A DNA stretch of 64,000 nucleotides, taken from Bryobacterales bacterium. Its GTDB lineage: Bacteria > Acidobacteriota > Terriglobia > Bryobacterales > UBA6623. Location: contig OZ241997.1 of NCBI GenBank assembly GCA_965204435.1, positions 5,817,132 to 5,881,131 of the forward strand, read 5' to 3'. Positions 294-40,681 of this stretch are shown piece after piece. The notes below the pieces were generated by a model. The model was not told the DNA's origin. It did not search any database and saw only the letters and a program-made list of their open reading frames with translations. The position numbers and the translations under genes were made by a program. Numbering within the stretch: position 1 is the first letter of the stretch; each line of letters starts with the position of its first letter.

Positions 294-389
294 TGTATGA
301 CTAGGAACCGGCAGGTTCTAACCTGTAATAATGATAGCAAAAAAATGGATTAATGACAACTGGTGCAAGTCCTATTGTATGACTAGGAA
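292..389. repeat. IS-internal 16-bp direct repeat pair (ATTGTATGACTAGGAA at 292-307 and 374-389)
   Basis: Exact 16-mer occurs twice, 82 bp apart. The same pair with the same spacing is in copy 2. Confidence 0.8.
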
Positions 390-766
390 AAACAGTTTTT
401 GAGGGGCCATTCTGGGGGCATTGGGAGGGATAGCCAGTAGTGCTCGGAGGCTAAGCTATTGAATGCGAAGAGGTTAGGTGCCGGGCCTCAGGCACGCAAA
501 GGCCCATAGCACAAAAAGTGGTCGGGGTAAGTTGGGCTTAGCGCTTGCGTTCCTCGACAGGGAACACGCTGTCCGGGCCGGTCGTGACTCAATCCCCCAA
601 AGTGATCTGTCGGTTTCACCCCCAGCTCCCCCGCTAGCTTGGGACAGGTGCCGGGTGAGCCAACGTCGGGTCCGAAGGCGAACGTGTTGTTGCCGTGCCA
701 GACAGAACTTCGGCTGGCAGCCGAGACCCGCTGCTCAAGTGTCCACCGTCCCGATGGGGCGCAGCG

Positions 767-1714
767 TTACTCGGCGAGCTCGCGAAATCGGCCCATGGCT
801 GCCTCGGCGTCACCCTGTCGGCCGAGGCGTCGGTAGACCGAGACCAGGCTGTACTGGACGCTCGCATCGAGCGGCGCCAGCTGCGCGGCGCTCTCCAGCG
901 CTTCCGCTGCGAGGCGGAGCTTGTTCGCCTTCGCGTACACGATGCCCAGTTCCCGTTGGGCGGGGGCGTGGCCGCGGTCCGCGGCCAACGCGGCGGCGAG
1001 CGCAGTCTCAGCCGCCTCCAAGTCGCCGAGGTCGTGTAACAGGCTGCCTAGGTGATAGTGCGGCCAAGCAGACACCGTGAGCTCTTCGCGGTTTAGCGAA
1101 ATCGCCCGCTCCAAGGCCGTGATCGCGGCGCTAGGCCGGCCTAGCCCCTCAAGGCACTGCCCGCGCAGATCGTGCGCCGCCGCCAGTTCAGGCGTGCTTT
1201 CGAGGATCTGATCCAGCTGTGACAGTGCTGCGGAAAACTGCCCTTGGTCGTAGTGAACCTGAGCTAGGGATAGCCTGTAGCGGTCCGAGTCCCCTTGCTG
1301 CGCGACCAGCCGATCCAGTTCCGCTCGGGCCCAGTGTCGTCGCTCTAGGCGAATAAACGAACCGGCAAGTAGGAATCGCGCCTCGGGCTCCAGCGGCGCA
1401 AGCGCGTCGGATCTCTTCAGGGCCGAGGCAGCCGAGAAGTAGCGCCCCGCTTGGTAGTGCGCGATGCCTAGAGCACGCAGCAGGGTTGCGGGCTGCGGAC
1501 TGCTGCTGGCCGCCTTGAAGAGGATGTCCTCGACAGCTGGCCACTGTTCGGCAGCGATGGCGGCCCGCAGTCGCTCGGCGGTGGCGGGCTGCAGGCCGAG
1601 TTCCTCGGTCCGCAGCGACACTGCGTTCTCAACCCCGAGAGCGCGCGGAGCGAATTGTAGTGCAACTGCAGCCACGGCTAGCGGGCCGACCAACAAACGT
1701 ACTCGTCCGTTCAA
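767..1714 (-). CDS. TPR-repeat protein, secreted
   Basis: 315-aa ORF. TTG start with AAGGGAGG 8 nt upstream. Signal-like N-terminus LLVGPLAVAAVALQFAP. Repeated A/L/Y-rich helical units of roughly 34 aa. Confidence 0.75.
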   Translation of the reverse strand: MNGRVRLLVGPLAVAAVALQFAPRALGVENAVSLRTEELGLQPATAERLRAAIAAEQWPAVEDILFKAASSSPQPATLLRALGIAHYQAGRYFSAASALKRSDALAPLEPEARFLLAGSFIRLERRHWARAELDRLVAQQGDSDRYRLSLAQVHYDQGQFSAALSQLDQILESTPELAAAHDLRGQCLEGLGRPSAAITALERAISLNREELTVSAWPHYHLGSLLHDLGDLEAAETALAAALAADRGHAPAQRELGIVYAKANKLRLAAEALESAAQLAPLDASVQYSLVSVYRRLGRQGDAEAAMGRFRELAE

Positions 1715-6932: not shown

Positions 6933-7033
6933 GTCCCCCTTGCTCTGTTGCGGCCGCTAAGGATTCGCTTGCGCCGAGCCGCGGCCAGCTTGGTAGACTC
7001 TGTTTCGCTTCGCTGATCGCGAGTTGAACCGTA

Positions 7034-19351: not shown

Positions 19352-19645
19352 CCCCAACGGCCCCGAACCAGCCTATGGCCAAGCTCAGTCTTGGGCTGCG
19401 TGATCGAACTGAGGCAACTCTCCAGATTTCAATCATTTAAGCGATTTCGACAAGCTTCGGCTTGGTTCGCTCTTGGACGGTATCACGGCGTTTTCGTCGG
19501 GTCGCTACTGGCTAGGTTGACACCTTCGGCATACTGCCGACAGCCTCTTTGGGTTCGGTCGACCACCGTGCTGGGCGCGTTTGGAACCCAGGCAACTCAA
19601 ACACGCGCTCGTGTGGTGGTATCAGATGTCAAGAGTCTCTTTGCC

Positions 19646-19879
19646 TCAGGAATCTTCGGCTTGCGAATGCACTCGGTCCAGTTCGTCGAGCACCGCCAAT
19701 CCGTGCTCGACTTTGCCGCGGGCCGCTCGCAACCGGAAACGCATCTCGGTATCGTGCTCGGTCGACGCACGGACGGAGAGTTCCCCCATCAGTTCGCTTA
19801 CGCTCACACCGCGTTGAGCGGCCATCGCCGCCAAGCGATCTCGATGGGCATCGGGTACCCGGATCGTCAATGTTGCCAT
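19646..19879 (-). CDS. hicB: Small RHH antitoxin of the short HicB-family type
   Basis: 77 aa: MATLTIRVPDAHRDRLAAMAAQRGVSVSELMGELS...TEMRFRLRAARG. GAAGGAGGAGG lies 7 nt upstream of the ATG. It sits directly downstream of the hicA pseudogene. Confidence 0.8.
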   Translation of the reverse strand: MATLTIRVPDAHRDRLAAMAAQRGVSVSELMGELSVRASTEHDTEMRFRLRAARGKVEHGLAVLDELDRVHSQAEDS

Positions 19880-19944
19880 GTCAGTCCTCCTCCTTCAGCC
19901 AGTTGCCAAGCGAACCGATCCATTTGCAAGCCGGTTGCTCGATG

Positions 19945-20136
19945 CTACGATCCGATCGGTGGTACCGACAGCCGACGGCAGATCTTGCGGACCAGTGGGC
20001 TTGGGATCTCTGTATGGCGAGGTACAGCTTCAATTACCCCTGTTCCTGGATTCGACCAAAGCGAGTGAGATGCACCTTCGCGCTTGAGATAGCAGCCATG
20101 TTTGCGCAGGTGTCACAGCAGGCCGACGCGCTTCAT
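19945..20136 (-). pseudogene. hicA: hicA toxin with an opal stop at codon 8
   Basis: My own minus-strand translation is MKRVGLL*HLRKHGCYLKREGASHSLWSNPGTGVIEAVPRHTEIPSPLVRKICRRLSVPPIGS*. This is clear HicA-family sequence. The TGA is at 20115-20113, and I see no in-frame start after it. The gene is absent from the ORF track. Confidence 0.8.
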
Positions 20137-20348
20137 TGCACGACGATCGTGTCACGCTCGGCGTCGGCCGGTAATCCGCGAAGGCCTTCTTCGCGTCGGT
20201 CCTCAAGAACCAACGCGATGGCTTGCGCAAGACTCTCTCTCGCTTCGTCCTTCGTCCGTCCCTGCCCGTTAGCGCCTGGGATTTCGGGGCAGTACGCGAT
20301 GATCCATTGCTCGTCACGCTCGAAGATTGCTGTGAATTCGTTTTGCAT
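20133..20348 (-). CDS. hicB: Short HicB-family antitoxin (UPF0150 fold only)
   Basis: 71 aa from the internal ATG at 20348: MQNEFTAIFERDEQWIIAYCPEIPGANGQGRTKDEARESLAQAIALVLEDRREEG. Its stop overlaps the hicA start (ATGA at 20136-20133). Confidence 0.85.
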   Translation of the reverse strand: MQNEFTAIFERDEQWIIAYCPEIPGANGQGRTKDEARESLAQAIALVLEDRREEGLRGLPADAERDTIVVQ

Positions 20349-20558
20349 CGCCGGAAATCGGCATTCTACCAGCGAATCTCGCCTCGAAGTTCCAATCGGC
20401 CATAGCGGGGTTCTGTCAATAGATGGGCGACTAGTTCGAGAGTAGTCGCAACTGGAACGGCGTTGAGAGACGGAGGGCGAACAGCGAGGCTGATTCCGGA
20501 GGCGTCGCGTCGTCTGTTCCACCTGCCGGCAGTCGCCACCGATCAATGCCGCCGGCAA
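20349..20558 (-). pseudogene. Possible degenerate hicA, in frame with and directly upstream of the UPF0150 hicB
   Basis: The 70 codons upstream keep a HicA skeleton (RQV..RRL...VSQRRSSCDYSRTSRPSID..LWPIGTSRRDSLVECRF, compared with R.V..LL...V..RGSHRQFKHP..KPSDDLAPGTLNSILKQAGL). The GSH motif is lost and no stop precedes the hicB ATG. Confidence 0.35.
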
Positions 20559-28730: not shown

Positions 28731-30127
28731 CTGCACCTGACACGGCAAACCCGATCGCCCGCCGCTGGTTTCTCGAGCGCTGCGGATTCGGGCTGGGCAC
28801 GGCGGCACTGGCGCACCTGTTGCGCGGCGACTCGCGCGCGGCGACCCGCCTGCCGCACTTCGCGCCCAAGGCCAAGAATGTCATCTTTCTCTTCCAAGCG
28901 GGTGGGCCGAGCCATCTAGAGCTCTTCGACTACAAGCCGGAGCTGGCAAAGTTCGACGGCACGCTCCCGCCCCCGGATCTGCTCGAGGGCTACCGGGCGG
29001 CGTTCATTGATCCGAATTCCAAGCTCCTAGGCCCGAAGTACAAGTTTCGGAGGGCAGGGCAGAGTGGTTTCGAGATCTCCGAACTCCTGCCGCATATGGC
29101 GACCGTGGTCGATGATGTCGCCTTTGTCCGTTCGACCGTCACGGACGCATTCAATCACGCACCGGCGCAGCTTCTCATGAGCACCGGCGCCCAGCAGTTC
29201 GGCAGACCCAGCATGGGAGCTTGGGTGACCTACGGACTTGGCAGCGAGTCAGAGGACCTGCCGGGCTTCATCGTTCTGAACTCGTCGGACTCGGGGCCAA
29301 GCGCGGGTACTGCTCTGTGGGGCGCGGGCTTCCTGCCCACGGTGCACCAAGGCGTGCCGTTCCGCTCCGGCGGGGAACCGGTCTTGTTCCTTTCCAACCC
29401 GCTGGGAATCACCGACCGTGTCCAACGCGACACTCTCGATGCGATCAACGGGATGAACCGCATCCAGCTCGAACGAATGGGGGATCCGGAGATCCAGACC
29501 CGCATTCGGTCATTCGAACTCGCGTTTCGCATGCAGAGCGCCGCTCCAGCCCTGATGGACATCAGCAACGAGGCCCCCGAGACGCTGGAGCTGTACGGGG
29601 CCGAGCCGGGCAAGGCCTCGTTTGCCAACAACTGCCTGCTGGCCCGACGGCTGGTGGAGCAGGGGGTGCGGTTCGTGCAGCTCTACCACGAGGCTTGGGA
29701 CCACCATGCCAACTTGACCAAGGGAATCCAGCAAGTCGCCAAGGATGTCGACCAAGGCTCGGCAGCGTTGATCAAGGATCTCAAGCGGCGCGGCTTGCTG
29801 GATGAGACCTTGGTTCTGTGGGGCGGGGAGTTCGGGCGAACGCCCATGACCCAGGACACCAATGGGATTGGCGACGGGCGCGATCACCATCCGGGCGCCT
29901 TCACAACGTGGATGGCCGGAGCCGGGATCCGCCGAGGCGTTACCTTGGGGCGGACTGACGAACTAGGCTTCCGCACGGTCGAGGACAAGGTTCACGTCCA
30001 CGACCTGCACGCGACCGTGCTGCACCTGCTTGGCTTCGACCACACCAAGCTAACCTACCGCTTCCAAGGTCGTGACTTCCGGCTGACGGACGTGAGTGGA
30101 GAGGTGGTCGAGAAACTGCTGGTGTGA
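28727..30127 (+). CDS. DUF1501 protein (TAT-exported, sulfatase-fold)
   Basis: ATG 28727 overlaps the upstream TGA (ATGA). ARRWFLERCGFGLGTAALA signal and GGEFGRTP...GRDHHP. Confidence 0.85.
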   Translation: MTAPDTANPIARRWFLERCGFGLGTAALAHLLRGDSRAATRLPHFAPKAKNVIFLFQAGGPSHLELFDYKPELAKFDGTLPPPDLLEGYRAAFIDPNSKLLGPKYKFRRAGQSGFEISELLPHMATVVDDVAFVRSTVTDAFNHAPAQLLMSTGAQQFGRPSMGAWVTYGLGSESEDLPGFIVLNSSDSGPSAGTALWGAGFLPTVHQGVPFRSGGEPVLFLSNPLGITDRVQRDTLDAINGMNRIQLERMGDPEIQTRIRSFELAFRMQSAAPALMDISNEAPETLELYGAEPGKASFANNCLLARRLVEQGVRFVQLYHEAWDHHANLTKGIQQVAKDVDQGSAALIKDLKRRGLLDETLVLWGGEFGRTPMTQDTNGIGDGRDHHPGAFTTWMAGAGIRRGVTLGRTDELGFRTVEDKVHVHDLHATVLHLLGFDHTKLTYRFQGRDFRLTDVSGEVVEKLLV

Positions 30128-30211
30128 GTTGCTGTAGGGCACTCTTGCGACACGGCCCGTCGGTCCGGCACGAAGGTAAGCACCGACGAGTTCTTCAGAC
30201 GACTGGGTGCC
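29993..30211. repeat. Left copy of the duplicated convergent junction (intact DUF1501 3' end plus decayed SMP-30 3' end)
   Basis: Colinear with 30561-30691 plus 32867-32945. An ungapped stretch of 88 nt across the DUF1501 stop has 67 matches by hand count. Confidence 0.75.
30132..30211 (-). pseudogene. Remnant of an SMP-30/gluconolactonase gene 3' end
   Basis: The minus strand reads VLTFVPDRRAVSQECPTA, against MLPFLPAQGPCRESAS* for the intact gene at 32891. The DNA block GGGCCGTGTCGC is identical. The stop codon is replaced by CAG. Confidence 0.5.
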
Positions 30212-30253
30212 GCTCATCGCCCGCAATCCCTCGAAGCGGCATGGCGCCCCGTT

Positions 30254-30484
30254 CTATTCGCCCCACGATGCTGCGGCCTCCCATCCTGTCAGGTCGCTTT
30301 CCACGTGCGGGGCGCGTTCGTATCCCAATCGGTCTTGCTCCTCCAGTCTCACTATGTGAAGACGTCGCAGGTGTTCCTTCAGAGCGTCTCGGATCAGAGC
30401 GGAGCGGTTCGTGCCAGCCCGACTAGCGGCTTCGTCAGCTCTAGCGAGAAGGTCGGCGTCGAGAACTACTTGGACTGTCTTCAC
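30254..30484 (-). CDS. CopG/RHH-family antitoxin-like protein with no adjacent toxin
   Basis: MKTVQVVLDADLLARADEAASRAGTNRSALIRDALKEHLRRL...EEQDRLGYERAP...WEAAASW from GTG 30484 (the track starts at 30505). This is the pattern seen in MazF/PemK-partner antitoxins. Confidence 0.75.
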   Translation of the reverse strand: MKTVQVVLDADLLARADEAASRAGTNRSALIRDALKEHLRRLHIVRLEEQDRLGYERAPHVESDLTGWEAAASWGE

Positions 30485-30560
30485 AACCTGCAAAATAGTC
30501 CACACCCAACGCTATAACTTGCTTGTAGGTATTCATGGGGTCATCGATCCATAGCTGCTA

Positions 30561-30691
30561 CACGTCTCTCAGCCGCTCCGCGCTGCAGAAGCAACGTGCT
30601 TGGCAAGGGTGTCCTAGCGACGCCAAGTTGACCTACCGCTTCTAGGGACGCGACTGCCGGCTGCCGGGTGTCGGTGGGTCGTTGTTCTAGA
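30561..30691 (+). pseudogene. Decayed DUF1501 3' end fragment, split by the IS (continues at 32867-32890)
   Basis: About 73-76% identical, ungapped, to 30043-30127. Contains an in-frame TAG and indels further upstream. Confidence 0.75.
30686..30691. repeat. Target-site duplication TCTAGA (left)
   Basis: The same hexamer directly flanks both IS termini. The paralogous uninterrupted site at 30108-30113 reads TCGAGA. Confidence 0.75.
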
Positions 30692-30838
30692 CCCAACTTA
30701 CCCCGACCACTTTTTGCGCTATGGGCCTTTGCGTGCCTGAGGCCCGGCACCTAACCTCTTCGCATTCAATAGCTTAGCCTCCGAGCACTACTGGCTATCC
30801 CTCCCAATGCGCCCAAAATGACCCCTCGAAAACCGTTT

Positions 30839-30936
30839 TTCCTAGTCATACAATATGACTTGCAGCAGTTGTCATTGATCCATTTATCTGCTATCATTGT
30901 TGCCAGTTAGAACCTGCTGGTTCCTAGTCATACAAT
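30839..30936. repeat. IS-internal 16-bp direct repeat pair TTCCTAGTCATACAAT (30839-30854 and 30921-30936)
   Basis: Exact repeat 82 bp apart. Each copy contains TACAAT. The second overlaps the transposase ATG at 30935. Confidence 0.8.
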
Positions 30937-32707
30937 GCACATCACCTCCTCTTTCGCCCGCAAGTCCCCCTGCCACCTCTTGCGCGAATCCTACTGGCGC
31001 AACGGCAAGGTCCACAAACGCACTCTCGCCAATCTCTCCGCTCTCCCCCAGCCCCTCATCGACCTGCTCAAGGCCGCCCTCGACCGCCAACTCCCTCTCG
31101 GCAGCCCCCACGCGCCCGTCCAGGCCGGGCGCGCGCGCCAGCACGGCGCCGTCTCCGCCCTGCTCGGCCTCGCCCGCAGCCTGCGCCTCGACCGCCTGCT
31201 CTTCCACCAACCCTGCCGCCAGCGCTCGCTGGCCCTCGCCCTGATCCTCGCCCGCCTGCTCAAGCCCGGCGCCAAGCTGCGCCTGGAACGCGAACTCGGC
31301 CCCGCCGGCCAAACCACCCTCGCCCACCTGCTCGACATCCGCAACGCACCCGTGGACGAACTCTACGACGCCATGGACTGGCTGCTCAAGCGCCAGCCCG
31401 CCATCGAGCGCAAGCTCGCCAAACTCCACCTCCGGCAAGGCGGCCTGGCCTTGTACGACCTCTCCTCCAGCTACGTCGAGGGCTCCTGCTGCCCGCTGGC
31501 CAAACGCGGCTACTCGCGCGACCATCGCTCCGACCGCCCCCAGATCACCTACGGCCTGCTGTGCAATCAGGACGGCTGCCCGATCGCGGTCGAGGCCTTC
31601 GCCGGCAACACCGCCGACCCCAGCACGCTCAGCAGCCAAGTCAACAAGTTGCGGCAACGCTTCGGCTTGCAACGGCTGGCCCTGGTCGGCGACCGCGGCA
31701 TGCTGGCCCAGACGCGCATCGCGGGCGAGCTGCAGCCAGCCGAGCTGGACTGGATCACGGCCCTGCGCCACGACAGCATTCGCAAGCTGGCTGCCGAGGG
31801 GCACTTCCAGCCCTCGCTGTTTGACACGCACGGCTTGGCCAGCATCACCGCGCCGGACTTCCCCGACGAGCGCCTGCTGGTGTGCTACAACCCGCTGGTG
31901 GCCGCCGAGCGGCGGCGCAAGCGCGCCGACTTGCTGGCCAGCACCGAGGCCGACCTGGCCGGGATGGCCAGCGCCTACGCGGCCGGCAAGATCGACCGCG
32001 ACGAGTTCAACCGGCGCTTGGGCACGCTGCGCAGGCGCAAGATGGGCAAGCACTTGCAGTGGTGCTTCGACGAGCACACGGAGGCCTTCAGCTCGACGCG
32101 CGACGAGGAGTCGATCGCGGCCGAGGCGCGCCTGGACGGCTTCTACGTGGTGCGCACCAGCCTGGCGGAGCAGGATCTGGACGATGCCGGGGTGGTGCGC
32201 GCCTACAAGAGCCTGGCGCGGGTGGAGCGGGCTTTCCGCTCACTCAAGACGAGCGGGCTGCGGGTGCGCCCGATCTTCCACTGGAAAGAGACGCGGGTGC
32301 GGGCGCACCTGCTGGTGTGCATGCTGGCGTACTACGTGGAATGGCACCTGCGGCGCCAGCTGGCGCCGCTGTTGTTCAGCGAGGAAGGCGAGCCCCAGCA
32401 TGCGGGCGGGCCGGTCGGGCCAGTGCAGCGCAGTGAGGCTGCCAAGCGTAAGGATCGCACGCGCCGGACGGCTGATGGGAGCCTGCCGGTGCAGAGCCTG
32501 GCAGACCTGTTGGCGGGGCTGGGCACGCTCAGCGCAGTGGAGTTGAAATACGCACAGGTGCCCGGCTATGCGGTGCCCACGCTGAGCGAGCTGGAGCCGT
32601 TACACGAGCGCGTGTTCGAGCTCCTGGGCTTCCAGCCCCACCCGGCACCGGCGCTGAGCGAGCCACCAGACAACCCAGGCAATGCGCCGCCCAAGACGCC
32701 AACCTAG
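30935..32707 (+). CDS. IS1634-family (IS4 superfamily) DDE transposase
   Basis: 590 aa. N-terminal YWRNGKVHKRTLANLS is typical of IS1634-type transposases. LYDLSSSY and LVGDRGM are candidate DD residues, and YKSLARVERAFRSLK is the Y-R-E-K-type motif. Confidence 0.85.
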   Translation: MHITSSFARKSPCHLLRESYWRNGKVHKRTLANLSALPQPLIDLLKAALDRQLPLGSPHAPVQAGRARQHGAVSALLGLARSLRLDRLLFHQPCRQRSLALALILARLLKPGAKLRLERELGPAGQTTLAHLLDIRNAPVDELYDAMDWLLKRQPAIERKLAKLHLRQGGLALYDLSSSYVEGSCCPLAKRGYSRDHRSDRPQITYGLLCNQDGCPIAVEAFAGNTADPSTLSSQVNKLRQRFGLQRLALVGDRGMLAQTRIAGELQPAELDWITALRHDSIRKLAAEGHFQPSLFDTHGLASITAPDFPDERLLVCYNPLVAAERRRKRADLLASTEADLAGMASAYAAGKIDRDEFNRRLGTLRRRKMGKHLQWCFDEHTEAFSSTRDEESIAAEARLDGFYVVRTSLAEQDLDDAGVVRAYKSLARVERAFRSLKTSGLRVRPIFHWKETRVRAHLLVCMLAYYVEWHLRRQLAPLLFSEEGEPQHAGGPVGPVQRSEAAKRKDRTRRTADGSLPVQSLADLLAGLGTLSAVELKYAQVPGYAVPTLSELEPLHERVFELLGFQPHPAPALSEPPDNPGNAPPKTPT

Positions 32708-32866
32708 TCACCAACGGCCTGTTCGAAATGCGGCTGTTCCGCCCAATGGCGTACGCAGCAGGGACTCGACGAAATCACCTAAGTGACTGATCCATCGCGA
32801 GGTACATCAGCCCAAGGTTGGAGCTTACGATGGCGTACAGCCATAAACTAGTTGGGGTAAGTTGGG

Positions 32867-32872
32867 TCTAGA
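32867..32872. repeat. Target-site duplication TCTAGA (right)
   Basis: See the left copy at 30686-30691. Confidence 0.75.
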
Positions 32873-32890
32873 AACTGCCGGCGTGAGCTG

Positions 32891-33754
32891 CTACGAGGCG
32901 CTTTCGCGACACGGCCCTTGGGCAGGCAGAAACGGAAGCATCGGCTCAAGCGGATGCTCTACCGCACCGATGTGCCAGCCACCAAGGTTCGCGAAGTAGA
33001 TCTCGTCTTTGCGCAGGGCGACGTTGGTCGGCCGGTTCATCCATTCTGCTAACGGGTCTCGATACAGCACTTCGAATCGGTCGTCAGTTCGGATCACGCC
33101 AATTTGGTCAGGAGAGTAGTAGGCAACATAGATATTGCCTTCGGTGTCTAGGGCGACTCCGTCGGGTACGGTACCAGACTCCAAGGGAATCTGGCGTACC
33201 GGTTCCATGCTCGCCACTTGCGGGCCATCGATTCGAAACGCGAGGATGCTGGGAGCGGTGCTCTCGACCACGTAGAGCAGCGAGTTGCCATGGTCGACGA
33301 AGACACCGTTGGTGAACCGGAACGGCCCGGGGTGTGCGCAGAGCGTCTCGCCTTCTGGAGTTATGGCGAATAGCCGACCGCTATGTCGCGTGGGATGGTA
33401 CGTGCCCGACTCGCTGAAGAACAGATTGCCCTTTGCGTCGAACGCACAGTCGTTCGGGTTGTCGAATTGACCCGTCGAAATCGCTTCGACGCCGCCGTTC
33501 GGTTCGATCCGCAAGACTTCGTTGCGACCTGCGTCGCAGGCGTAGACGGCACCAGCTTGGTCAGAGCACAGTCCGAGGACAAAGCCTCCGGTCTGCGCTG
33601 TAGCCTCGAACGAACCAGTCGTCGGATCAATGCGGTAGATTGCTCCCGCCTCGCTACCGCACACCAGCGAGCCGTCGGCTGCAAAGCACAGGCCCTCGGG
33701 GTGGTCCAAGCCGGCACACACGAATCGGACGATCTCAGGGGAAGCGGGTGTCAT
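32891..33754 (-). CDS. SMP-30/gluconolactonase/LRE-family beta-propeller (putative sugar lactonase)
   Basis: 287 aa. Repeated propeller blades with PEGLCFAADGSL, NDCAFDAKGNLFF, TNGVFVD and PDGVALDTEGNIYVA. Confidence 0.85.
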   Translation of the reverse strand: MTPASPEIVRFVCAGLDHPEGLCFAADGSLVCGSEAGAIYRIDPTTGSFEATAQTGGFVLGLCSDQAGAVYACDAGRNEVLRIEPNGGVEAISTGQFDNPNDCAFDAKGNLFFSESGTYHPTRHSGRLFAITPEGETLCAHPGPFRFTNGVFVDHGNSLLYVVESTAPSILAFRIDGPQVASMEPVRQIPLESGTVPDGVALDTEGNIYVAYYSPDQIGVIRTDDRFEVLYRDPLAEWMNRPTNVALRKDEIYFANLGGWHIGAVEHPLEPMLPFLPAQGPCRESAS

Positions 33755-34031
33755 GGGCCGGGAAGCGACGTTCGTTCCAGCATATCGCTGCGTGATCAGG
33801 CCGAACCGTCCGATAATCTCGAGCGAACGGCCACGATCCTCCTCGGTCGTGCGCCGCAGAAACGAGGTGTGCTCTCCCCATAGGACCGGAGCTAAGCGGA
33901 ATCACAACACGAATCTGCCCGAGTACAGACATCTGCTAGTCTTCAGCGGTCGCACGATCCGTGTTCTGGGGTAGTTGTTGGAGTTGGTTGCGAGATTCCG
34001 AGCCTAGTAATGTTTATGATGGATTATGAAT

Positions 34032-34060
34032 TTGACTAAATTTATAATTTGCAGTAAATT
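34032..34060 (+). promoter_or_regulatory. Sigma70-like promoter of the ATPase gene (TTGACT-17 nt-TAAATT) in an AT-rich tract with tandem short repeats
   Basis: TTGACT at 34032-34037 and TAAATT at 34055-34060. TAAATTTAT occurs at 34037 and 34055. TTTAGTGG occurs at 34064 and 34073. Confidence 0.4.
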
Positions 34061-34093
34061 TATTTTAGTGGCTTTAGTGGGGTAAGTTTCAAA

Positions 34094-35299
34094 ATGACGA
34101 CATTCTCAAACCCCTTTCGCCCTGGCGCGGGTCACACGCCGCCCTATCTGGCTGGGAGAGAAACGGAGCGCAATGAGTTTCTAAGACTACTCAATCAACA
34201 GACAGTCTTGGAGAACATGGTTCTGACCGGGCTTCGAGGAGTGGGCAAGACAGTCCTGCTCGACTCGCTCAAGCCATTGGCAACGAGTCGAGGCTGGATA
34301 TGGGTCGGAGCTGATCTCTCCGAGTCCGCTAGCTTGAGCGAGCATAACTTGGCAACTCGCGTCTGTGCAGACCTGGCTCTGGTCACATCAAACATAGTCG
34401 TGGCCACGGAGGAGGTTAGGAGGGCAGGATTCTCTGCCGAGCGGGAAGAAATCCCTCGCACACTCGGATTCCGAGATTTGATGGATACCTACGAAAGAGT
34501 TCCCGGCTTGTCTCTCGACAAGATCAAGGGCGTACTTGGCGTTGCGTGGCGCGCTGTTTCCAGCATGCCGAACGTGCGTGGGATCGTCTTCGCCTACGAC
34601 GAAGCGCAGAACCTCGCGGACAGATCAGCTAATGAGCAGTATCCCTTGTCGTTGCTGCTTGATTCCTTTCAATCCCTGCAGCGGCAGGGATTTCCCATGA
34701 TGCTCGTTCTGACTGGTCTTCCGACCCTATTCCCCAAGCTAGTCGAGGCGAGAACATTCTCCGAGAGGATGTTCAGAGTTGTGTTCCTTGACCGCCTTTC
34801 CGAGAGCGAGAGCACGGAAGCAGTCCGCAGACCCATCGACGATGCAGAGTGTCCTGTCCGACTTGAAGGTGGCTCCGTGAGCAAGATCGTCAAGATGTCT
34901 GGAGGCTACCCGTACTTCATCCAGTTCATCTGCAAAGAGGTGTACGACGCATTTATTCAACGCCATGATCGAGGGGAAGATGCCTCCGTTCCGACTGCAG
35001 AGATTCAGCACAAGCTAGACACGGACTTCTTTTCAGGGCGATGGGAACGAGCGACTGATCGGCAGAGAGCACTGCTGTCTGTGATTTCTCGCCTTGAGAA
35101 CTGCGAAGAAGAGTTCACGGTCCAACAGGTGGTTGAAGAATCGCAACGGTCGTTGGAGAGACCGTTCGGCGGCAGCCAGGTCAGTCAGATGATGGTCGCC
35201 CTAGCATCCCAGGGGCTGGTGTACAAGAATCGGCACGGGAGGTACTCCTTTTCAGTGCCTCTATTGGGTCAATTCATCCGCAGGCAGATGCACGGTTAG
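34094..35299 (+). CDS. P-loop ATPase (AAA_16/archaeal-ATPase-like) with C-terminal winged-helix-like domain; function unknown
   Basis: 401 aa. NPFRPGAGHTPPYLAGRETE, then Walker A GLRGVGKT and Walker-B-like IVFAYDEAQNL. The C-terminal FTVQQVVEE...LASQGLVYKNRHGRYSF looks like a wHTH. G+C is lower than in the neighbouring genes. Confidence 0.75.
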   Translation: MTTFSNPFRPGAGHTPPYLAGRETERNEFLRLLNQQTVLENMVLTGLRGVGKTVLLDSLKPLATSRGWIWVGADLSESASLSEHNLATRVCADLALVTSNIVVATEEVRRAGFSAEREEIPRTLGFRDLMDTYERVPGLSLDKIKGVLGVAWRAVSSMPNVRGIVFAYDEAQNLADRSANEQYPLSLLLDSFQSLQRQGFPMMLVLTGLPTLFPKLVEARTFSERMFRVVFLDRLSESESTEAVRRPIDDAECPVRLEGGSVSKIVKMSGGYPYFIQFICKEVYDAFIQRHDRGEDASVPTAEIQHKLDTDFFSGRWERATDRQRALLSVISRLENCEEEFTVQQVVEESQRSLERPFGGSQVSQMMVALASQGLVYKNRHGRYSFSVPLLGQFIRRQMHG

Positions 35300-35692
35300 A
35301 ACCGATTTGGCTGTCGGCTCCCAGCAATACGGACCGGGCTCTTCGTACCGCCTTCCAGCAGTACAGGTGACTTCGCCGCAAGATGTCTGGTTGTCGCCGG
35401 GATTGTGCCAGAGCGTTTGGAGGGATCGAAACCGCAGCGTTTGCGGCGCTCGACGGAATTCTCTTCAGCGTCCGGCGGGCTCGAGTTACTGATCGGCTTG
35501 CGGGGCCGGAGCTCTCTTGGGCACCTGCTTTCTCAAATCGACGAGATCAAGGCACGGCGCAACGGACGGCACGCTGGTGCGCTTTTCCGCGCAGCCGGGC
35601 ACTACGACCATCGCCAGCACAAGTGAGAATCGGCTCGTGGGCTGTTTCAGAGCGTATTCGTGGTTCGCTGGACCGATTCTCTCTCTAGAGTT

Positions 35693-37471
35693 CTACGGCG
35701 CCGGATCCGCGAGGATTTGGTTGTAGGTGCGTTGCCGCATGGGTATCGCTTCGAGCTGGGGCAGTGCGCCGTTCTTTTCCGCCTCGATCCACCACAAGTC
35801 CTGCAGTTCCTTGAGCTTCTCCGGGTGTTGGGTAGCTAGGTCGGTCGTCTCTGTGAAGTCCGCCTCAACGTTGTAGAGCTCCCAATGGTCGGACTCAAAA
35901 TCCGTCCCCGGGGTATGGAACGCTACCGCCTTCCAGCCCCTGTGGTAGATTCCTCGGCTGCCCCACAGCTCGAAGAACTGCGTGTCGCGTGGAGCTGGAG
36001 CCGCCGGATCCTCGAACGCCGCCCTCATGCTTCCGCCGTGCATGGGCATCTGGCAGACGCCATCGAAGGCTTGCGGTGCCTCGATTCCGAGATAGTCGAG
36101 CACGGTTGGAGTGATGTCGATGACGTCGACGAACTGCTCGCGCAATCCGGGTCTGCGAATTCGATCGGGCCACGAGACGATCATCGGCGTGCGCACTCCG
36201 CCGTTGAACGGCCACAGCTTGTAGTACTTGAACGGCGCGCTGGAGGCCATCGCCCAGGGCCGGGGATAGAGCGGCTGCGTGCCGGGGCCGCCCAGTTCGT
36301 CCAGCCGTTCGTGCATCTCCTGCACGGTTGTGGGATCGCCGTACGAACGTGCGAAATTCCCTTTCACGCCAGCTTCCGGCGCGCCGCCATTGTCCGAGAT
36401 CAGGACGATCAGGGTGTTGTCGAACTGGCCGTTCTCCCCCAGAAACGAGATCAGCCGGCCGATCTGCTCGTCGGTGTGCTCGGTGAACCCCGCGTAGGCT
36501 TCCATGAACCGTGCGTAGACTCTGCGCTCGGTCTCGCTAAGGTCGCTCCAAGCCGGGTCGCCCGGATTGCGCGGAGGAAGCCTGGCTCCCGACGGAATGA
36601 TGCCGAGCTCCAACTGCCGGCGATAGCGCCTCTCCCTGACCGCGTCCCACCCGTCGTCGAACGCGCCTTCGTAGCGCTTGATATAGCGCTTGGGTACTTG
36701 GATCGGCGCGTGCGTGGCCCCGAACGCCAGGAGCAGGAAGAAGGGTTTCTCGCTGTCCGATTCGAGATTTCCCGACAGCATCGCGATCGCCTGATCCACG
36801 ATGTCTTCCGAGAAATGGTAGTCCGTCCGCTCGGGCGCCGGAACTGCGTGGTTGTCCACCACAAGGTCGGGCTGATACTGGTCGGTCCAGCCGGAGAGGA
36901 ACCCATGGAAACGGTCGAAGCCTTTCTGCAGCGGCCAGTGCGTGCGGTCCCCTGCCGGCGTCATGTCTTCGCGCGGTACCAAGTGCCACTTCCCGGCCGC
37001 GAAGGCGCTATAGCCGTGGCGGCCCAGGATCTGTGCGATGTTCGCTGCCGATGCTGGCACCCGCCCGCGCGTATGGGGGTATCCTTGGTCCCCGCCCGGG
37101 AGCTCCTTCATCCCGACCGAATGCGCGTTGCGGCCTGTCAGCAGCGAGGCCCTCGTCGGAGAACACACGGCCTTCGACTGGAAGTTGTTGAATAGCAGGC
37201 CCCCTTTGGCGAGCGAATCGATATTGGGTGTCGAGACCGAGGAGCCATAGCAGCCCAAGTCTCCGAAACCGGTGTCGTCGAGGACGATGTACACCACATT
37301 CGGACTGCCCGCGGGAGGCCGTGCCGGCTGCAGCGGGGAGGGTGTGGAATCTTCGGCTGTGCGCCCGATGACACCCTCGAATCTCGGTTCCGGAGCTGTT
37401 TCGCAGGTCTCTTGGGCGTAGGCCCCTACCGCGACAGTCCAGAGGAGGGGAATGGCTACGAGCTGTTTCAC
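35693..37471 (-). CDS. Sulfatase (Cys-type arylsulfatase)
   Basis: GTG 37471 overlaps the upstream TGA (GTGA). Signal VKQLVAIPLLWTVAVGAYA. Contains PNVVYIVLDDTG and CSPTRASLLTGR. Confidence 0.9.
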   Translation of the reverse strand: MKQLVAIPLLWTVAVGAYAQETCETAPEPRFEGVIGRTAEDSTPSPLQPARPPAGSPNVVYIVLDDTGFGDLGCYGSSVSTPNIDSLAKGGLLFNNFQSKAVCSPTRASLLTGRNAHSVGMKELPGGDQGYPHTRGRVPASAANIAQILGRHGYSAFAAGKWHLVPREDMTPAGDRTHWPLQKGFDRFHGFLSGWTDQYQPDLVVDNHAVPAPERTDYHFSEDIVDQAIAMLSGNLESDSEKPFFLLLAFGATHAPIQVPKRYIKRYEGAFDDGWDAVRERRYRRQLELGIIPSGARLPPRNPGDPAWSDLSETERRVYARFMEAYAGFTEHTDEQIGRLISFLGENGQFDNTLIVLISDNGGAPEAGVKGNFARSYGDPTTVQEMHERLDELGGPGTQPLYPRPWAMASSAPFKYYKLWPFNGGVRTPMIVSWPDRIRRPGLREQFVDVIDITPTVLDYLGIEAPQAFDGVCQMPMHGGSMRAAFEDPAAPAPRDTQFFELWGSRGIYHRGWKAVAFHTPGTDFESDHWELYNVEADFTETTDLATQHPEKLKELQDLWWIEAEKNGALPQLEAIPMRQRTYNQILADPAP

Positions 37472-38394
37472 GATTCGTTCGCAGTGTTTGTATTTCCGAA
37501 CAACGACATCACGCGGTCGATGAGATAGTCCGCGTAACGATCCGTGTGCGGATCGAGCGTCAATGTGGTCTGCCGGACGGTGTCGCACTCGATGAGCCCG
37601 CGACGCACGAGGAGCCTCTTCTCCATCTGCAGCAGCAGCTCCATGTTCTGCAGGCTGTAGGCCAGGTAGGGCAGCACCGCTTGGAACCGATCCATGGCAC
37701 CGTCGCGGTTGCCCCCGATCGCGAGATCGTAGACTTGCTGGAGTATGTCGGCGACGCCCAGCGCCGGCATGGCCCCGCAGATTCCAGCGTCGATGCCCTC
37801 TAGCAGGTACATGCCTCCCCAGCCTTCGAGGACTTGCACGCCGCCATCTGTCGCCTCTAGGATTTCGGCCACTCTCGGTGCCATCAGCGGCTGTTCCAGC
37901 TTGAGGTAGCAGAAGTTTGGGAAGTCCGAGTGCAGGCGCTTCGCCGTTTCAGGCGAGATCGTCGGACCGCCCGGGTTGAAGTCCTGCACTAGTACCGAGA
38001 GGGATGTCGCGCCTGCCACATCGGCCACAAACTTGTACACGTCTTCCTCGGAAATGTCGAACATTCTCGGCACGGCCACTGAGATGACGTCGGCGCCTCT
38101 TTCTTCATTGGCGCTTGCGATCGTCGCAGCATGGATGCCGGCAAAGTGGTTCGACTGCGCGATGACTTGGATTTCTCCGTCCGCGGCATCGACTGCGGTG
38201 CCGACCACCATTTCCCGCTCCAACTCGGTCAGCTTGTAGAACTCGCTCGCGTACGCTGGCAGGCAGACGGCGCTGAAACCGCTGATCGCACAGAATCGAA
38301 CGAGTCGCTCCAGCGACGCGAGGTCGAGCTGCTCCTCTCTGTCGAACGGTGTCGGCAGGACAGGGACGATGCCTGTGATCTGGGCGGTCTTCAT
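37468..38394 (-). CDS. DapA/N-acetylneuraminate-lyase-family aldolase (putative 2-keto-3-deoxy sugar-acid aldolase)
   Basis: ATG 38394 overlaps the upstream TGA (ATGA). MKTAQITGIVPVLPTPFDREEQLDLASLERLV is typical of the DHDPS family. Confidence 0.8.
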   Translation of the reverse strand: MKTAQITGIVPVLPTPFDREEQLDLASLERLVRFCAISGFSAVCLPAYASEFYKLTELEREMVVGTAVDAADGEIQVIAQSNHFAGIHAATIASANEERGADVISVAVPRMFDISEEDVYKFVADVAGATSLSVLVQDFNPGGPTISPETAKRLHSDFPNFCYLKLEQPLMAPRVAEILEATDGGVQVLEGWGGMYLLEGIDAGICGAMPALGVADILQQVYDLAIGGNRDGAMDRFQAVLPYLAYSLQNMELLLQMEKRLLVRRGLIECDTVRQTTLTLDPHTDRYADYLIDRVMSLFGNTNTANES

Positions 38395-39161
38395 TTTGGT
38401 GCCGATGCTGCTCCGACGACACACCCGCCGTCGCAGGTGATGGTTGTGCCAGTGACGTAGTTCGAGGCGTCCGAGACCAAGAATCCGACGATGTCGGCCA
38501 CATCCGATGCCTGCTGGATCTTGCCCAACGGGATCAGGCTCATGAACTCCTCGCGAAATTCCGGAAAGTCTCTCAGCTCGCGCGCGGTCAAGCCTGCCTC
38601 AACGATTCCCGGCGCTATCGCGTTCACGGTGATTCCGTGCGGGGCCAGCTCCAAAGCGGCACAGCGCGCGAGCATCCATACTCCTGCCTTGGAAACGCAG
38701 TACGGGGCGATCAGCTTGTAGGGGACATCCTGCACCCATGATCCCGTGAAGATGACCTTGCCCTTATGGCCGTCGGCTACCCACCGCTTGGTCACTTCCT
38801 GGGTGACATGGAAGTAGCCGTTGAGGTTGACTTCCATGTGCTGGTTCCATTGCTCGACCGTGTACTCGAGGAACGGCACGTTCATCGAGATGCCTGCGTT
38901 GCACATGCACACGTCCAAGCGACCAAATTCCGCCCACACAGCTTCCAGTGCAGCCTGCACAGCCGCCCGGTCGGCCACGTCGACCTGCAAGTACAGCACG
39001 CGGGCGCCCTTGCTGCGAAGGGCGTCGACCCGCTGGGCGTTCGGCTTGATGTCCAGCAGGGCAACGTTCATGCCCATGGCGACCATCTTTTCGGCAGAGG
39101 CGTATCCCAAGTCGCCGATTCCGCCCGTGATCAATCCCACTTTCCGCTCTTGTTGCGCCAT
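38391..39161 (-). CDS. SDR-family oxidoreductase
   Basis: ATG 39161 with GGAGAGAA upstream. Contains GLITGGIGDLG, NAG and a YCVSK catalytic motif. Confidence 0.85.
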   Translation of the reverse strand: MAQQERKVGLITGGIGDLGYASAEKMVAMGMNVALLDIKPNAQRVDALRSKGARVLYLQVDVADRAAVQAALEAVWAEFGRLDVCMCNAGISMNVPFLEYTVEQWNQHMEVNLNGYFHVTQEVTKRWVADGHKGKVIFTGSWVQDVPYKLIAPYCVSKAGVWMLARCAALELAPHGITVNAIAPGIVEAGLTARELRDFPEFREEFMSLIPLGKIQQASDVADIVGFLVSDASNYVTGTTITCDGGCVVGAASAPK

Positions 39162-39169
39162 TTCTCTCC

Positions 39170-40681
39170 TCACCCCGACTGCTCTCCAGTCAGTTCCACA
39201 TCGATATCCTGTCCGTCCTCGCTGCCCAAGATGCTCGCCACTTCGTATGGCCACAGGTGGCGGTCGAAGCTCTCTGCGGCTTGCCGTTTCGGCCAGCCCG
39301 AGAGGGTGGTCCGGCGCGGGCGGTCGAGCAAGTAGTTCGCATAGATCTGGCGGGCGTGTTCCCGGTGCGGGGCCACCGCCTCGGCACTATAGCGGTACTT
39401 CTCCAGACGCTCCGGATCCAAGCGCAGCCCATGCCCGGGTTGCGGGGACAGCCTCAGGTGTCCGCCGTTCCAGTCAAACTGTCCGCCCGCGATCACGTCG
39501 TCGCTTACGTGAATCGTCTCGTTGTCGATCGGATGACAGGTGCGCGGCGTGCGGCCCATGTAAATCCCTACCCGCTCCGGCTCCTGCAGGAACGTGGCCG
39601 CCATCGCGCCCCGGAATGCCAGTTGCGTGCAGAGTTCAAAATTGCTGTGCAGGGCGAGATGCAGTCCCATGAACTTCGCCAGTTGCGCAAAGCGCCATAG
39701 CCCCCAGGGCCCGAGGTTGATGTCCGGCACCGACACGTCCGCCCCCTCGTAGCGCTCAAGCATGTACCAATCGGGCTCCCATCGGTTGGCCATCGGGCCG
39801 GCGCCAGGCGGGTGGATGATCGGCGGCCACCAATGGCACGACAGCGGCGTGCGCAATTCGCCGCGCAGAGCCGTCATCCGCCTGTAGTAGTACTCGGCCT
39901 GATAGCTGCCCTTGGAGGTGTCGCGCTGCGGCGGGCGCTCCGACCGCGGGTAGAAGCGCTGGGGCAGCAACGAGTGCACGGGCTGCTCTGCGTACTCCAG
40001 GTGACAGTCCTCGACGGCATGCAGGATGCGCCTAGCCTCTTGGTAGTTCCATGTGCCGTGAGCGTCGATGCGGATTGCGGTGTCCGGGCCGACGGCATCG
40101 CGAATCCTGTGGATCAGCTCGATGTGATCTTCGGGCTGGTATGCGGTCATCGAGACCTTGACAGCCGGGAATCCCTCGCGAGCCCGCTCGGCCGCGAATT
40201 CCGGCCACGTCTCGTACGTGATCGCGTCGTTGCCCTCCCGGTCGGCGAACCGTTGCCAGGTGTAGGCTGCCATGGGAACTCGATCTGGCGGCGTGAAATC
40301 GGCCTCGAACAGCTCGGCCCAAAGCTGGTGCAGGGGCTTGCCCAGCACCTGCCCCACCAGATCCCACCAAGCCATGAACAGCGGCTCCTCGAGTTCCGTG
40401 TCCAGCAGGTTCCGGCCCGGCTGTCCTTGCAGTCGCGCGACACAATCCCGGGCGTTGCTGTCGAGGTCAACCGACCACTCTCCCGTGCCTACCAGACCCT
40501 GCTTGGTCCGCAATTCGACGAATGCCCACGACACTGCTGGTAACGCCTGCCAGCCGGGCGTGTACACGCCCACCATCGGGATAAGAACCTTGTGAACCGT
40601 GGCTTCGCCAAGCGTCAGCCGGTGTGGTGCCAACAGATCTGCCAGCTTTTCTCGGAACAACCCGATCCGACGCTTGAGCAT
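39170..40681 (-). CDS. Enolase-superfamily (mandelate racemase/muconate lactonizing enzyme-like) dehydratase
   Basis: Contains FPAVKVSM...IRIDAHGTWNYQEARRILHAVEDCHLEYAEQPV. The start is uncertain: ATG 40681, while the track extends to 40813. Confidence 0.75.
   Translation of the reverse strand: MLKRRIGLFREKLADLLAPHRLTLGEATVHKVLIPMVGVYTPGWQALPAVSWAFVELRTKQGLVGTGEWSVDLDSNARDCVARLQGQPGRNLLDTELEEPLFMAWWDLVGQVLGKPLHQLWAELFEADFTPPDRVPMAAYTWQRFADREGNDAITYETWPEFAAERAREGFPAVKVSMTAYQPEDHIELIHRIRDAVGPDTAIRIDAHGTWNYQEARRILHAVEDCHLEYAEQPVHSLLPQRFYPRSERPPQRDTSKGSYQAEYYYRRMTALRGELRTPLSCHWWPPIIHPPGAGPMANRWEPDWYMLERYEGADVSVPDINLGPWGLWRFAQLAKFMGLHLALHSNFELCTQLAFRGAMAATFLQEPERVGIYMGRTPRTCHPIDNETIHVSDDVIAGGQFDWNGGHLRLSPQPGHGLRLDPERLEKYRYSAEAVAPHREHARQIYANYLLDRPRRTTLSGWPKRQAAESFDRHLWPYEVASILGSEDGQDIDVELTGEQSG

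Follow-up and report, generated by a model that had tools for sequence, protein, structure and literature searches.

The ATPase gene and its setting

The window analyzed here is a stretch of 64,000 nucleotides from contig OZ241997.1 (positions 5,817,132 to 5,881,131 of the forward strand) of a Bryobacterales bacterium; all positions below are those of the window. At 33755-35692, between a lactonase gene and a sulfatase gene, lies a single gene for an AAA+ ATPase with a C-terminal winged helix-turn-helix (wHTH) domain (Table 1). The minus strand carries, upstream of the sulfatase gene and in this order, genes for an MR_MLE dehydratase, an SDR protein and a DHDPS-family aldolase. A first-pass annotation, made from the sequence letters alone, had described the ATPase gene as a lone, apparently foreign interruption of a putative sugar-acid catabolic cluster, transcribed opposite to its neighbors. 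The ATPase gene is indeed on the plus strand with the lactonase and sulfatase genes both on the minus strand, and the comparisons below support the core of that description.

The lower G+C content that the annotation had estimated by hand counts was evident in windowed profiles. In 400-nt windows, G+C was 0.49-0.50 over 33800-34399, then 0.54-0.57 up to about 35400, and 0.60-0.65 on either side. The 1-kb bin 34001-35000 was the lowest of the 64 bins of the window (0.529), and the remaining bins ranged from 0.576 to 0.711. The ATPase open reading frame (ORF) was compared with the 34 other non-overlapping ORFs of the window. Its G+C content (0.554, z = -3.5) was the lowest of the 35; its G+C content at third codon positions (GC3, 0.637, z = -2.0) and its synonymous-codon typicality (z = -2.1) were both the second lowest. 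G+C content and codon usage set the ATPase gene apart from the rest of the window, in keeping with a foreign origin.

Table 1. Positions of the ATPase cassette, its parts and its neighbors in the window.
Feature	Position	Strand	Remarks
Mobile cassette (promoter/operator, 5' untranslated region, ORF)	~34013-35303	+	Sole stretch sharing DNA with copies in other phyla
Sigma-70-type promoter	34032-34060	+	TTGACT 34032-34037, 17-nt spacer, TAAATT 34055-34060; kept in L081 and across phyla
Putative operator box 1, CTAAATTTAT	34036-34045	.	Family consensus CTAAATTTAG, core TAAATTTA; overlaps 3' end of -35 hexamer
Putative operator box 2, GTAAATTTAT	34054-34063	.	Exactly 18 bp from box 1; contains -10 hexamer
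Coding sequence, 401 aa, AAA+ ATPase (ORC/Cdc6- and Arch_ATPase-like) with C-terminal winged helix	34094-35299	+	PHROG 6841, Pfam AAA_16
N-terminal signature peptide FSNPFRPGAGHTPPYLAGRETER, residues 4-26	34103-34171	+	Nearly invariant; kept in plasmid homologs of ~30% identity
Walker A, G46-LRGVGK-T53	34229-34252	+	G46, G49, G51, K52, T53 invariant
Walker B, V165-FAYD-E170	34586-34603	+	Y168, D169, E170, A171, Q172 invariant; on model strand 163-169
GGYP, G270-P273, GxP-type motif in helical lid	34901-34912	+	G271, Y272, P273 invariant; lid helices in model
C-terminal wHTH, ~residues 322-401	35057-35296	+	Presumed recognition helix 360-372, wing 376-386 (model)
Lactonase, SGL/SMP-30	32891-33754	-	Ancestral last operon gene, now cut off from operon by insertions
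5' spacer, lineage-specific	33755-34012	.	258 nt, lactonase start codon to cassette; outside mobile unit
3' spacer, lineage-specific	35304-35692	.	389 nt; without conserved ORF, RNA family or repeat; ~200 nt absent from L081
Sulfatase	35693-~37471	-	Start 37471 inferred from 592-aa gene call in L081; host-like composition
DHDPS-family aldolase	37468-38424	-	Upstream edge of variable slot

A single-gene cassette shared across phyla

We compared window positions 30000-40000 by blastn with other loci that carry a related ATPase gene (numbered L001 onward). Matches ran over 34013-35287 for L007 (Binatia), over 34022-35303 at 82% identity for L001 (Bryobacterales), and from 34032 to about 35300 for L002, L003 and L088. 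DNA identity between copies from different phyla was limited to about 1.26-1.39 kb. For example, a Nitrospinales copy (L045) and a gammaproteobacterial copy (L041) were 88% identical over 1390 bp, with a synonymous divergence (dS) of 0.27, and Binatia and Latescibacterota copies were 78% identical over 1260 bp. The Bryobacterales copy L001 and the copy in L081, a close relative of the host, were 83% identical over 1261 bp. Since the shared stretch begins at 34013-34032 and ends at about 35300, the mobile unit consists of the promoter and the ORF and nothing else. The first-pass annotation had taken the whole of 33755-35692 as the foreign unit, which is too wide; the cassette, as we call the unit here, covers about 1.29 kb.

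The family is large. At least 551 genomes had a relative of the ATPase in a scan of one genome per species, and the best 80 genome loci encoded proteins with 58-83% identity to the window ATPase. These 80 came from Acidobacteriota, Binatia, Latescibacterota, Chloroflexota, Spirochaetia, Gammaproteobacteria, Rhodothermales, Nitrospinales, Planctomycetota, Gemmatimonadota, Omnitrophota and others. Many of the ATPase-bearing genome records have sponge-lineage names, for example Hymedesmia symbiont and Ca. Poriferihabitaceae; going by these record names, many carriers appear to be sponge symbionts. A large protein collection held about 8000 clusters of the family at 90% identity, and the top 120 were all at least 70% identical and 399-414 aa long. 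Two shortened ATPases of 272 aa (P0391 and P0393), from other contigs of up to 144 kb, fell into one 90% cluster with the window protein and could be truncated copies or alternative gene calls.

We surveyed the neighborhoods of the homologs for conserved partner genes, as the first-pass annotation had proposed. All-against-all clustering of the ORFs within 6 kb on either side in 81 loci (the 80 genome loci and the window) revealed no neighbor family in common. The 150 immediately flanking genes belonged to 133 Pfam families, mostly of ordinary metabolism or housekeeping. Two familiar kinds of element were considered and set aside: an insertion sequence, transposon or integron cassette, for lack of a shared recombinase and of a conserved attC-like 3' element; and a toxin-antitoxin module, for the cassette is a single gene without a conserved neighbor.

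In 76 of 79 loci, the ATPase gene had a lower G+C content than its flanks, by 6.8 points on average over the loci, and its GC3 ranged from 0.21 to 0.945. In the window its GC3 is low as well, which points to incomplete amelioration.

In one pair of gammaproteobacterial metagenome-assembled genomes, assigned to Pseudohongiella (L040) and Ca. Poriferihabitaceae (L041), DNA identity of 96-98% extended over several kb around the cassette, with internal rearrangements and repeats. This suggests a larger common mobile region or a binning problem.

Carriage by phages and plasmids

IMG/VR contained 18 loci with an ATPase 54-62% identical to that of the window. Nine of them (L096-L104) share one backbone, in which the ATPase gene lies between early/replication genes and the terminase. 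In L099, the one compared among the nine, the terminase-portal region was 97% identical to that of Acinetobacter baumannii temperate phages such as vB_AbaSI_1 and YMC/09/02/B1251. These deposited phages lack the ATPase gene and have other small ORFs in the slot. Elsewhere the gene was found on the opposite strand between portal-side genes and the head protease (L092), among replication and recombination genes (L095), and about 4 kb downstream of a large terminase gene (L094). The cassette is present in at least four phage backbones; a pair of different backbones from Acinetobacter phages had nothing in common except the cassette, from position -92 to 20 nt past the stop codon, at 85% DNA identity. 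The G+C content of the cassette was below that of the phage backbone (0.346 vs 0.40 and 0.392 vs 0.417). Among sequenced plasmids and deposited phages, no high-identity copy was found; plasmid homologs reached about 30% identity, and one weak phage match was obtained.

The identity between distant copies, confined to the cassette, indicates that the cassette has been transferred across bacterial phyla and from one phage backbone to another. In the two phage backbones read in detail, the cassette is moron-like in its sequence context. As with phage morons, its phage-borne copies have their own promoter, are inserted between phage genes, are lower in G+C and are present in some and absent from others of a set of related phages. 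In the window, the ATPase stop codon is not directly followed by a terminator-like site, and a clear terminator was not found. In contrast to morons, the window copy is chromosomal with no surrounding prophage, and the cassette also inserts between housekeeping genes of many phyla.

The phage copies matched PHROG 6841, a phage protein family with no assigned function, at E values of 1e-72 to 1e-118. The proteins of this family have the same length and architecture as the window protein; the entry does not include the cassette structure, the operator described below or the wide chromosomal spread across phyla.

Occupants of the aldolase-lactonase slot

In L081, whose ATPase is 91% identical, the gene order is as in the window (PSCyt-DUF1501-lactonase-ATPase-sulfatase-aldolase-SDR-dehydratase), with proteins that are each 89-97% identical. 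The dS between the window and L081 was 0.32 for the ATPase gene and 0.29-0.38 for neighboring genes. The ratio of non-synonymous to synonymous divergence (dN/dS) of the lactonase gene was 0.12 in this pair, and that of the ATPase gene was 0.04-0.21 in every pair tested. By the match in dS, the cassette has been inherited vertically since at least the split from L081, and it has been under purifying selection.

The slightly more distant relatives L082, L083 and L089 (lactonase 84-87% identical; dehydratase, SDR, aldolase and DUF1501 proteins 81-95%) showed a different arrangement. All three have the dehydratase, SDR, aldolase and lactonase genes in this order, and none has the sulfatase or the ATPase at this position (0 of 3). 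In L083, the aldolase and lactonase genes overlap by 4 nt (7001-7004) with nothing between them; homology to the window stops at 37493 and resumes at 33754, so that the extra DNA of the window is 33755-37492. The slot is occupied by a HipBA toxin-antitoxin pair in L082 (5284-6887) and by a Phd/PIN pair in L089 (6035-6663). Because this order is kept in all three without a sulfatase, the ancestral operon was dehydratase-SDR-aldolase-lactonase. The first-pass annotation was correct in placing the lactonase in the sugar-acid pathway, but its view of the sulfatase gene as the end of the operon does not apply to the ancestral arrangement. Judged from these comparisons, the sulfatase is a second lineage-specific occupant of the slot, and the aldolase-lactonase junction is a hot spot prone to recombination. 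The sulfatase gene appears to be joined to the aldolase gene by a 4-nt overlap at the aldolase stop codon (inferred from its assigned start), like the aldolase-lactonase overlap in L083.

In the genome of L082, a 79% identical ATPase gene lies elsewhere, flanked by a cytochrome b/multihaem-cytochrome cluster on one side and Fic/UxuA genes on the other; a further genome with these flanks carries an 80% identical copy at that site. The dS between copies at this second site (contigs L085-L088) and the window ATPase gene was 1.48; we read these copies as separate acquisitions or old paralogs rather than orthologs. A Fic-domain gene follows the ATPase gene in L085 and L086 (8519-9580) and is missing from the otherwise collinear L087 and L088. 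Among the 80 genome loci, three immediate neighbors matched SoFic or Fic models. L082 also has a different lone ATPase of 413 aa (Pfam ATPase_2/PF01637; positions 1-1241, minus strand) just upstream of the same dehydratase operon, and tblastn at E <= 1e-5 detected no similarity between it and the window ATPase.

Could the gene have been inherited vertically, with a low G+C content that follows from its amino acid composition? The gene is below its flanks in G+C in nearly all hosts, whatever the host G+C, and it has been co-inherited with its neighbors between the window and L081, as this explanation would predict. Against it stand the atypical GC3 and codon usage in the window, the empty or differently filled slot in relatives, the 88% cross-phylum DNA identity that is limited to the cassette, and the presence of the cassette in phage genomes. 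The empty-site and cross-phylum DNA comparisons already contradict this explanation, and we give it next to no probability. Vertical inheritance at this position in all relatives, which the annotation had named as a finding that would overturn its reading, does not agree with the three relatives that lack the gene here. The other such finding, G+C and codon usage no different from those of the genome, does not agree with the composition of the gene as measured against the rest of the window.

Paired palindromes on the promoter

The annotation had pointed to a TTGACT-17-TAAATT promoter upstream of the ATPase gene. It is present, and it was the sole sigma-70-like match within 33600-35800. Two putative operator boxes coincide with its hexamers. 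Across phyla, the upstream consensus is TTGACTAAATTTAGt-N8-cTAAATTTAg; the core TAAATTTA equals its own reverse complement, and ACTAAATTTAGT forms a perfect palindrome of 12 nt. With at most one mismatch, CTAAATTTAG occurred 73 times within the 100 nt upstream of the start codon, compared with 10 times in the other ~0.95 Mb. Pairs of TAAATTTA, with at most one mismatch each, were found upstream of the gene in 76 of 103 loci and in 2 of 7214 control windows, and the spacing of the pair was exactly 18 bp in all 76. The core of box 1, which lies within the promoter spacer after the -35 hexamer, was 91-100% conserved. We know of no sigma-70 requirement for this sequence in a promoter spacer. The promoter/operator sequence is kept across hosts with a local G+C of 37% to 73% in the flanks, and the phage-borne copies retain the box pair. 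On plasmids of Rhodococcus, Pandoraea, Clavibacter and Azoarcus, homologs with about 30% identity carry other AT-rich inverted repeats in this place.

The geometry of the boxes resembles the site of a dimeric repressor, and the winged helix of the ATPase itself is the only DNA-binding domain that always accompanies them. From these two points we infer that the ATPase may repress its own promoter through the two TAAATTTA palindromes. DnaA at its own promoter and the type Ia ParA/SopA proteins likewise combine an NTPase with an HTH or wHTH domain, have boxes in their own promoters and repress them depending on the nucleotide state. The cassette resembles them as a presumed autorepressing DNA-binding ATPase, with binding on the cassette side proposed from the box pattern. 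DnaA and ParA/SopA belong to other ATPase clades and have known partners (oriC, ParB/parS), whereas no partner or second site was found for the cassette. To the extent that we could search the literature and databases, a cross-phylum cassette with a fixed 18-bp operator pair has not been described.

The annotation had suggested that the protein could be a sensor or regulator. One such role would be dedicated control of the sugar-acid and sulfatase genes around it, the ATPase gene having been recruited to govern the lactonase or sulfatase gene from the divergent intergenic region. The wHTH domain, the divergent orientation next to the lactonase gene, and the position kept under purifying selection in the window and L081 would fit such a role. 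However, no neighbor is conserved in the 80 loci, relatives have the same operon without the ATPase gene, 79-80% identical copies lie at another site in the L082 genome and in one further genome, and the cassette is also found in phages. In addition, the sole conserved DNA motif is in the gene's own promoter; the window had no other good box match, and its count of matches with up to two mismatches was at the chance level. We consider regulation of the local genes extremely unlikely.

The ATPase protein

Both motifs that the annotation had quoted, NPFRPGAGHTPPYLAGRE and the Walker A sequence GLRGVGKT, are present. The first is part of an N-terminal peptide of 23 residues with the consensus FSNPFRPGAGHxPPYLAGRxxER. 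AAA_16 (PF13191) was the sole Pfam family above threshold (42.4 bits against a cutoff of 32.6; E 1.3e-10; residues 19-205). PHROG 6841 matched over the full length (E 4.5e-60; residues 3-398 on profile positions 19-415 of 470). NCBIfam gave no match for the window protein, and neither the single protein nor the family profile matched any chain in a sequence search of the Protein Data Bank (PDB). We found no description of the family in the literature, and the databases label it as 'AAA family ATPase', 'ATP-binding protein' or PHROG 6841.

An AlphaFold model from a 61-sequence alignment (pLDDT 80, pTM 0.72) has a P-loop alpha/beta core, into which a beta-hairpin is inserted, together with a helical lid and, at the C-terminus, a winged helix, in agreement with the wHTH domain that the annotation had proposed. 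The wing residues R380, G382 and Y384 were invariant or nearly so, and in one relative (P0205) the region homologous to the wHTH domain matched Pfam HTH_5/MarR. The profile and structure searches that the annotation had suggested (AAA_16, Arch_ATPase, STAND and Avs families) place the protein with ORC/Cdc6- and Arch_ATPase-like folds. In the Foldseek ranking against PDB, the two archaeal proteins SSO1545 (2fna) and PAB2304 (2qen) came first, followed by DNA-bound archaeal Orc1/Cdc6, eukaryotic ORC/Cdc6 and plant NLR proteins; the ORC/Cdc6 and Arch_ATPase matches cover the full length of the protein. The viral fold library BFVD yielded generic AAA+ matches only.

SSO1545 and PAB2304 (E 2e-10 and 4e-10, TM-scores 0.46-0.59) belong to Arch_ATPase/ATPase_2 (PF01637). 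Each stands alone as a protein of 350 residues and, like the window protein, is built from an AAA+ core, a helical lid and a winged helix; to our knowledge they also have no known function. The relationship is distant at the sequence level: identity to 2fna and 2qen is 14-16%, and the window protein had no match to PF01637 at E <= 0.01 (gathering score 33.2 bits), while relatives scored 20-40 bits. Relatives also touched the Pfam families ATPase_2, nSTAND1 and nSTAND6.

A HMMER pass over 1.84 billion representative proteins gave 3666 relatives. Among the best 150, nearly all full-length matches were 380-450 aa long with one matched stretch; three were longer (518, 528 and 862 aa), and there was one tandem duplication. 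None of them showed an effector fusion, and Pfam searches of the three longer ones detected no effector domain. The earlier statement that the protein has no recognizable effector domain therefore extends from the window protein to its best full-length relatives.

The annotation had also suggested a degenerate member of a STAND/AAA-type defense family. The word degenerate is not supported, as the ATPase motifs are invariant and dN/dS is low. Nor was membership of a known defense family: PADLOC-DB 2.0.0 gave no significant match for the window protein, the best being PDC-S01 (E 0.055), confined to the Walker A region. A STAND/Avs-type remnant that has lost its sensor and effector domains would account for the likeness to STAND NTPases (MalT/LAL, Avs/NLR-like and nSTAND proteins). 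The window protein shares with them the AAA_16 match, the nucleotide-binding, helical and winged-helix core, the plant NLR fold matches, and a GxP-type lid motif of the sort typical of STAND and Arch_ATPase-type NTPases; its relatives touch nSTAND1 and nSTAND6. MalT-type regulators of this class couple an ATP switch to DNA binding. The window protein differs in having neither sensor repeats (TPR, WD40 or LRR) nor an effector, and the core fills all 401 aa. Proteins of about 400 aa are usual for the family, both among the best representative matches and in the ~8000 clusters, so the length does not reflect truncation; the invariant motifs, the low dN/dS and the lack of a match to any PADLOC Avs or NLR model also speak against decay from such a system. 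We regard a STAND remnant as very unlikely.

The likeness to archaeal Orc1/Cdc6 raises the question of whether the gene encodes a replication initiator with an adjacent origin, either as a minimal plasmid or phage replicon or as the relic of one. Orc1/Cdc6 proteins (2qby, 2v1u, 1fnn) combine an AAA+ module with a C-terminal winged helix, as the window protein does, and they were the best characterized fold matches (Foldseek E 1e-9 to 2e-8 over ~420 columns), bound to origin DNA. Archaeal orc1/cdc6 genes adjoin origins with repeated dyad boxes; the window gene likewise adjoins repeated dyad boxes in an AT-rich tract, two in number, and distant homologs are on plasmids. The window protein, however, showed no detected sequence-level relationship to Orc1/Cdc6 and has the GxP-type lid motif, and its two short boxes sit exactly on the -35 and -10 hexamers, which is the geometry of an operator and not of an origin with an unwinding element. 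Phage copies of the gene lie away from the replication genes or inside the structural module (the L096-L104 backbone and L092), and the gene is dispensable among near-identical phages. The chromosomal copies are long-lived, with GC3 ameliorated up to 0.94, and an active second chromosomal origin would presumably be hard to tolerate. An initiator is, in our judgment, a rather improbable explanation.

Further features of the window

The annotation had seen no convincing ORF downstream of the ATPase gene (35300-35692). The sole ORF there, at 35383-35688 (101 aa), had no Pfam match; an Rfam search of the region gave nothing below E = 0.6, and a repeat search found none. Only its first ~140 nt are common to L081. 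The spacer on the other side (33755-34012) is partly common to L081 and shares about 35 nt with L082 and nothing with other cassette loci.

The DUF1501 and lactonase genes are separated by an IS1634-family element (30692-32866), which is about 1.1 kb away from the cassette. The transposase ORF of the element (30935-32707; NCBIfam E 4.7e-93) has a GC3 of 0.91 and the highest G+C in the window. L081, a close relative, lacks the element, so the insertion is recent. A stretch of 75-150 bp similar to the 3' end of the DUF1501 gene recurs close to the stop codon of the lactonase gene in the window (30038-30185 and 32865-32937), in L081 (8314-8387 and 8826-8972) and in L083; in the window, the two copies flank the IS1634 insertion site.

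Nowhere in the window is GC3 lower (0.58) or codon use less typical than in two overlapping plus-strand ORFs (225 and 298 aa) at 19391-20445, which had no Pfam match; the patch may likewise be foreign, or it may be non-coding.

Discussion

Taken together, we consider somewhat probable the reading as a whole, in which the islet is a horizontally acquired, self-contained single-gene cassette that represses itself and may have a role in genetic conflict. Horizontal acquisition is the part that is shown, by the foreign composition, the empty or differently filled slots in relatives, the cross-phylum DNA identity limited to the cassette, and the carriage by phages. The cassette has landed in the recombination-prone slot between the aldolase and lactonase genes. 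Its winged helix would bind the two TAAATTTA palindromes over the -35 and -10 boxes, so that the gene would repress itself. ATP binding or hydrolysis, together with oligomerization, might set the state of the protein, as in other ORC/STAND-type switches. The benefit would most likely come from conflict among mobile elements or from keeping out incoming DNA, with the DNA-bound ATPase itself as the acting part. This role is our best guess and the least certain part of the reading; it is suggested by the absence of an effector or partner, the carriage by phages and plasmids, and a slot that in relatives holds toxin-antitoxin pairs.

Several observations weigh against parts of this reading. For a role in conflict or defense, many copies lie between ordinary housekeeping genes, the rates of PADLOC hits among flanking genes are about those of genes 4-5 kb away, with no gradient of the kind expected of defense islands, and the protein itself lacks a significant PADLOC match. 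For the integration route, the 80 loci have no recombinase or other gene in common next to the cassette; no 3' element is conserved across phyla, as the 3' flanks are unrelated and homology ends at the stop codon; and no direct repeats, terminal inverted repeats or target duplications were seen at the window flanks by eye, no program search having been aimed at them. As for recent arrival, the G+C deficit across hosts could partly reflect a constrained protein sequence instead. For self-repression, box 2 holds the -10 hexamer, so its conservation is partly that of promoter function. Covariation of the recognition helix with the boxes was considered as well and set aside: it appeared in a single clade (an HIH helix with TATATTTA boxes), too little to count.

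A purely selfish or neutral passenger, or a transcription factor of lysogenic conversion, would persist by frequent transfer and tight self-repression and have no role in defense or exclusion. The lack of an effector, a partner, a defense-family match and a defense-island gradient is what such a gene would show, and tight autorepression would lower the cost to the carrier. Purifying selection is strong, however, the ATPase motifs are invariant across phyla, and copies with ameliorated GC3 have been retained over long residence; purifying selection and long retention argue for a selected biochemical activity. In the form of a regulator with a host-specific regulon, the explanation is hard to reconcile with 60-80% identity across many phyla. 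We think a passenger unlikely, though more plausible than the initiator.

The conflict-related cassette that we favor could take a more specific form, an effector-less, one-protein immunity or exclusion module. The protein would be expressed at a low level through binding to its own promoter, and ATP would switch on its assembly on incoming or rival DNA, where the oligomer would block replication or transcription. Action of this kind would not depend on the host and would explain the cross-phylum spread and the conservation. We put this form forward tentatively, with a chance no greater than that of the passenger.

The cassette joins known kinds, the ORC/STAND-type ATPase with a wHTH domain and the phage moron, and does not form a new category. 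Among the uncharacterized single-gene mobile modules visible with the methods used here, the family is one of the larger, and it combines near-housekeeping conservation with clear recent transfer across phyla. The cassette carries a portable promoter and putative operator. This pair offers a direct experimental handle, and the Acinetobacter prophages offer a cultivable system. If a function in exclusion or defense is true, the family would add an effector-less mechanism; if the cassette is only a self-regulating passenger, it would be a clean example of a minimal selfish gene.

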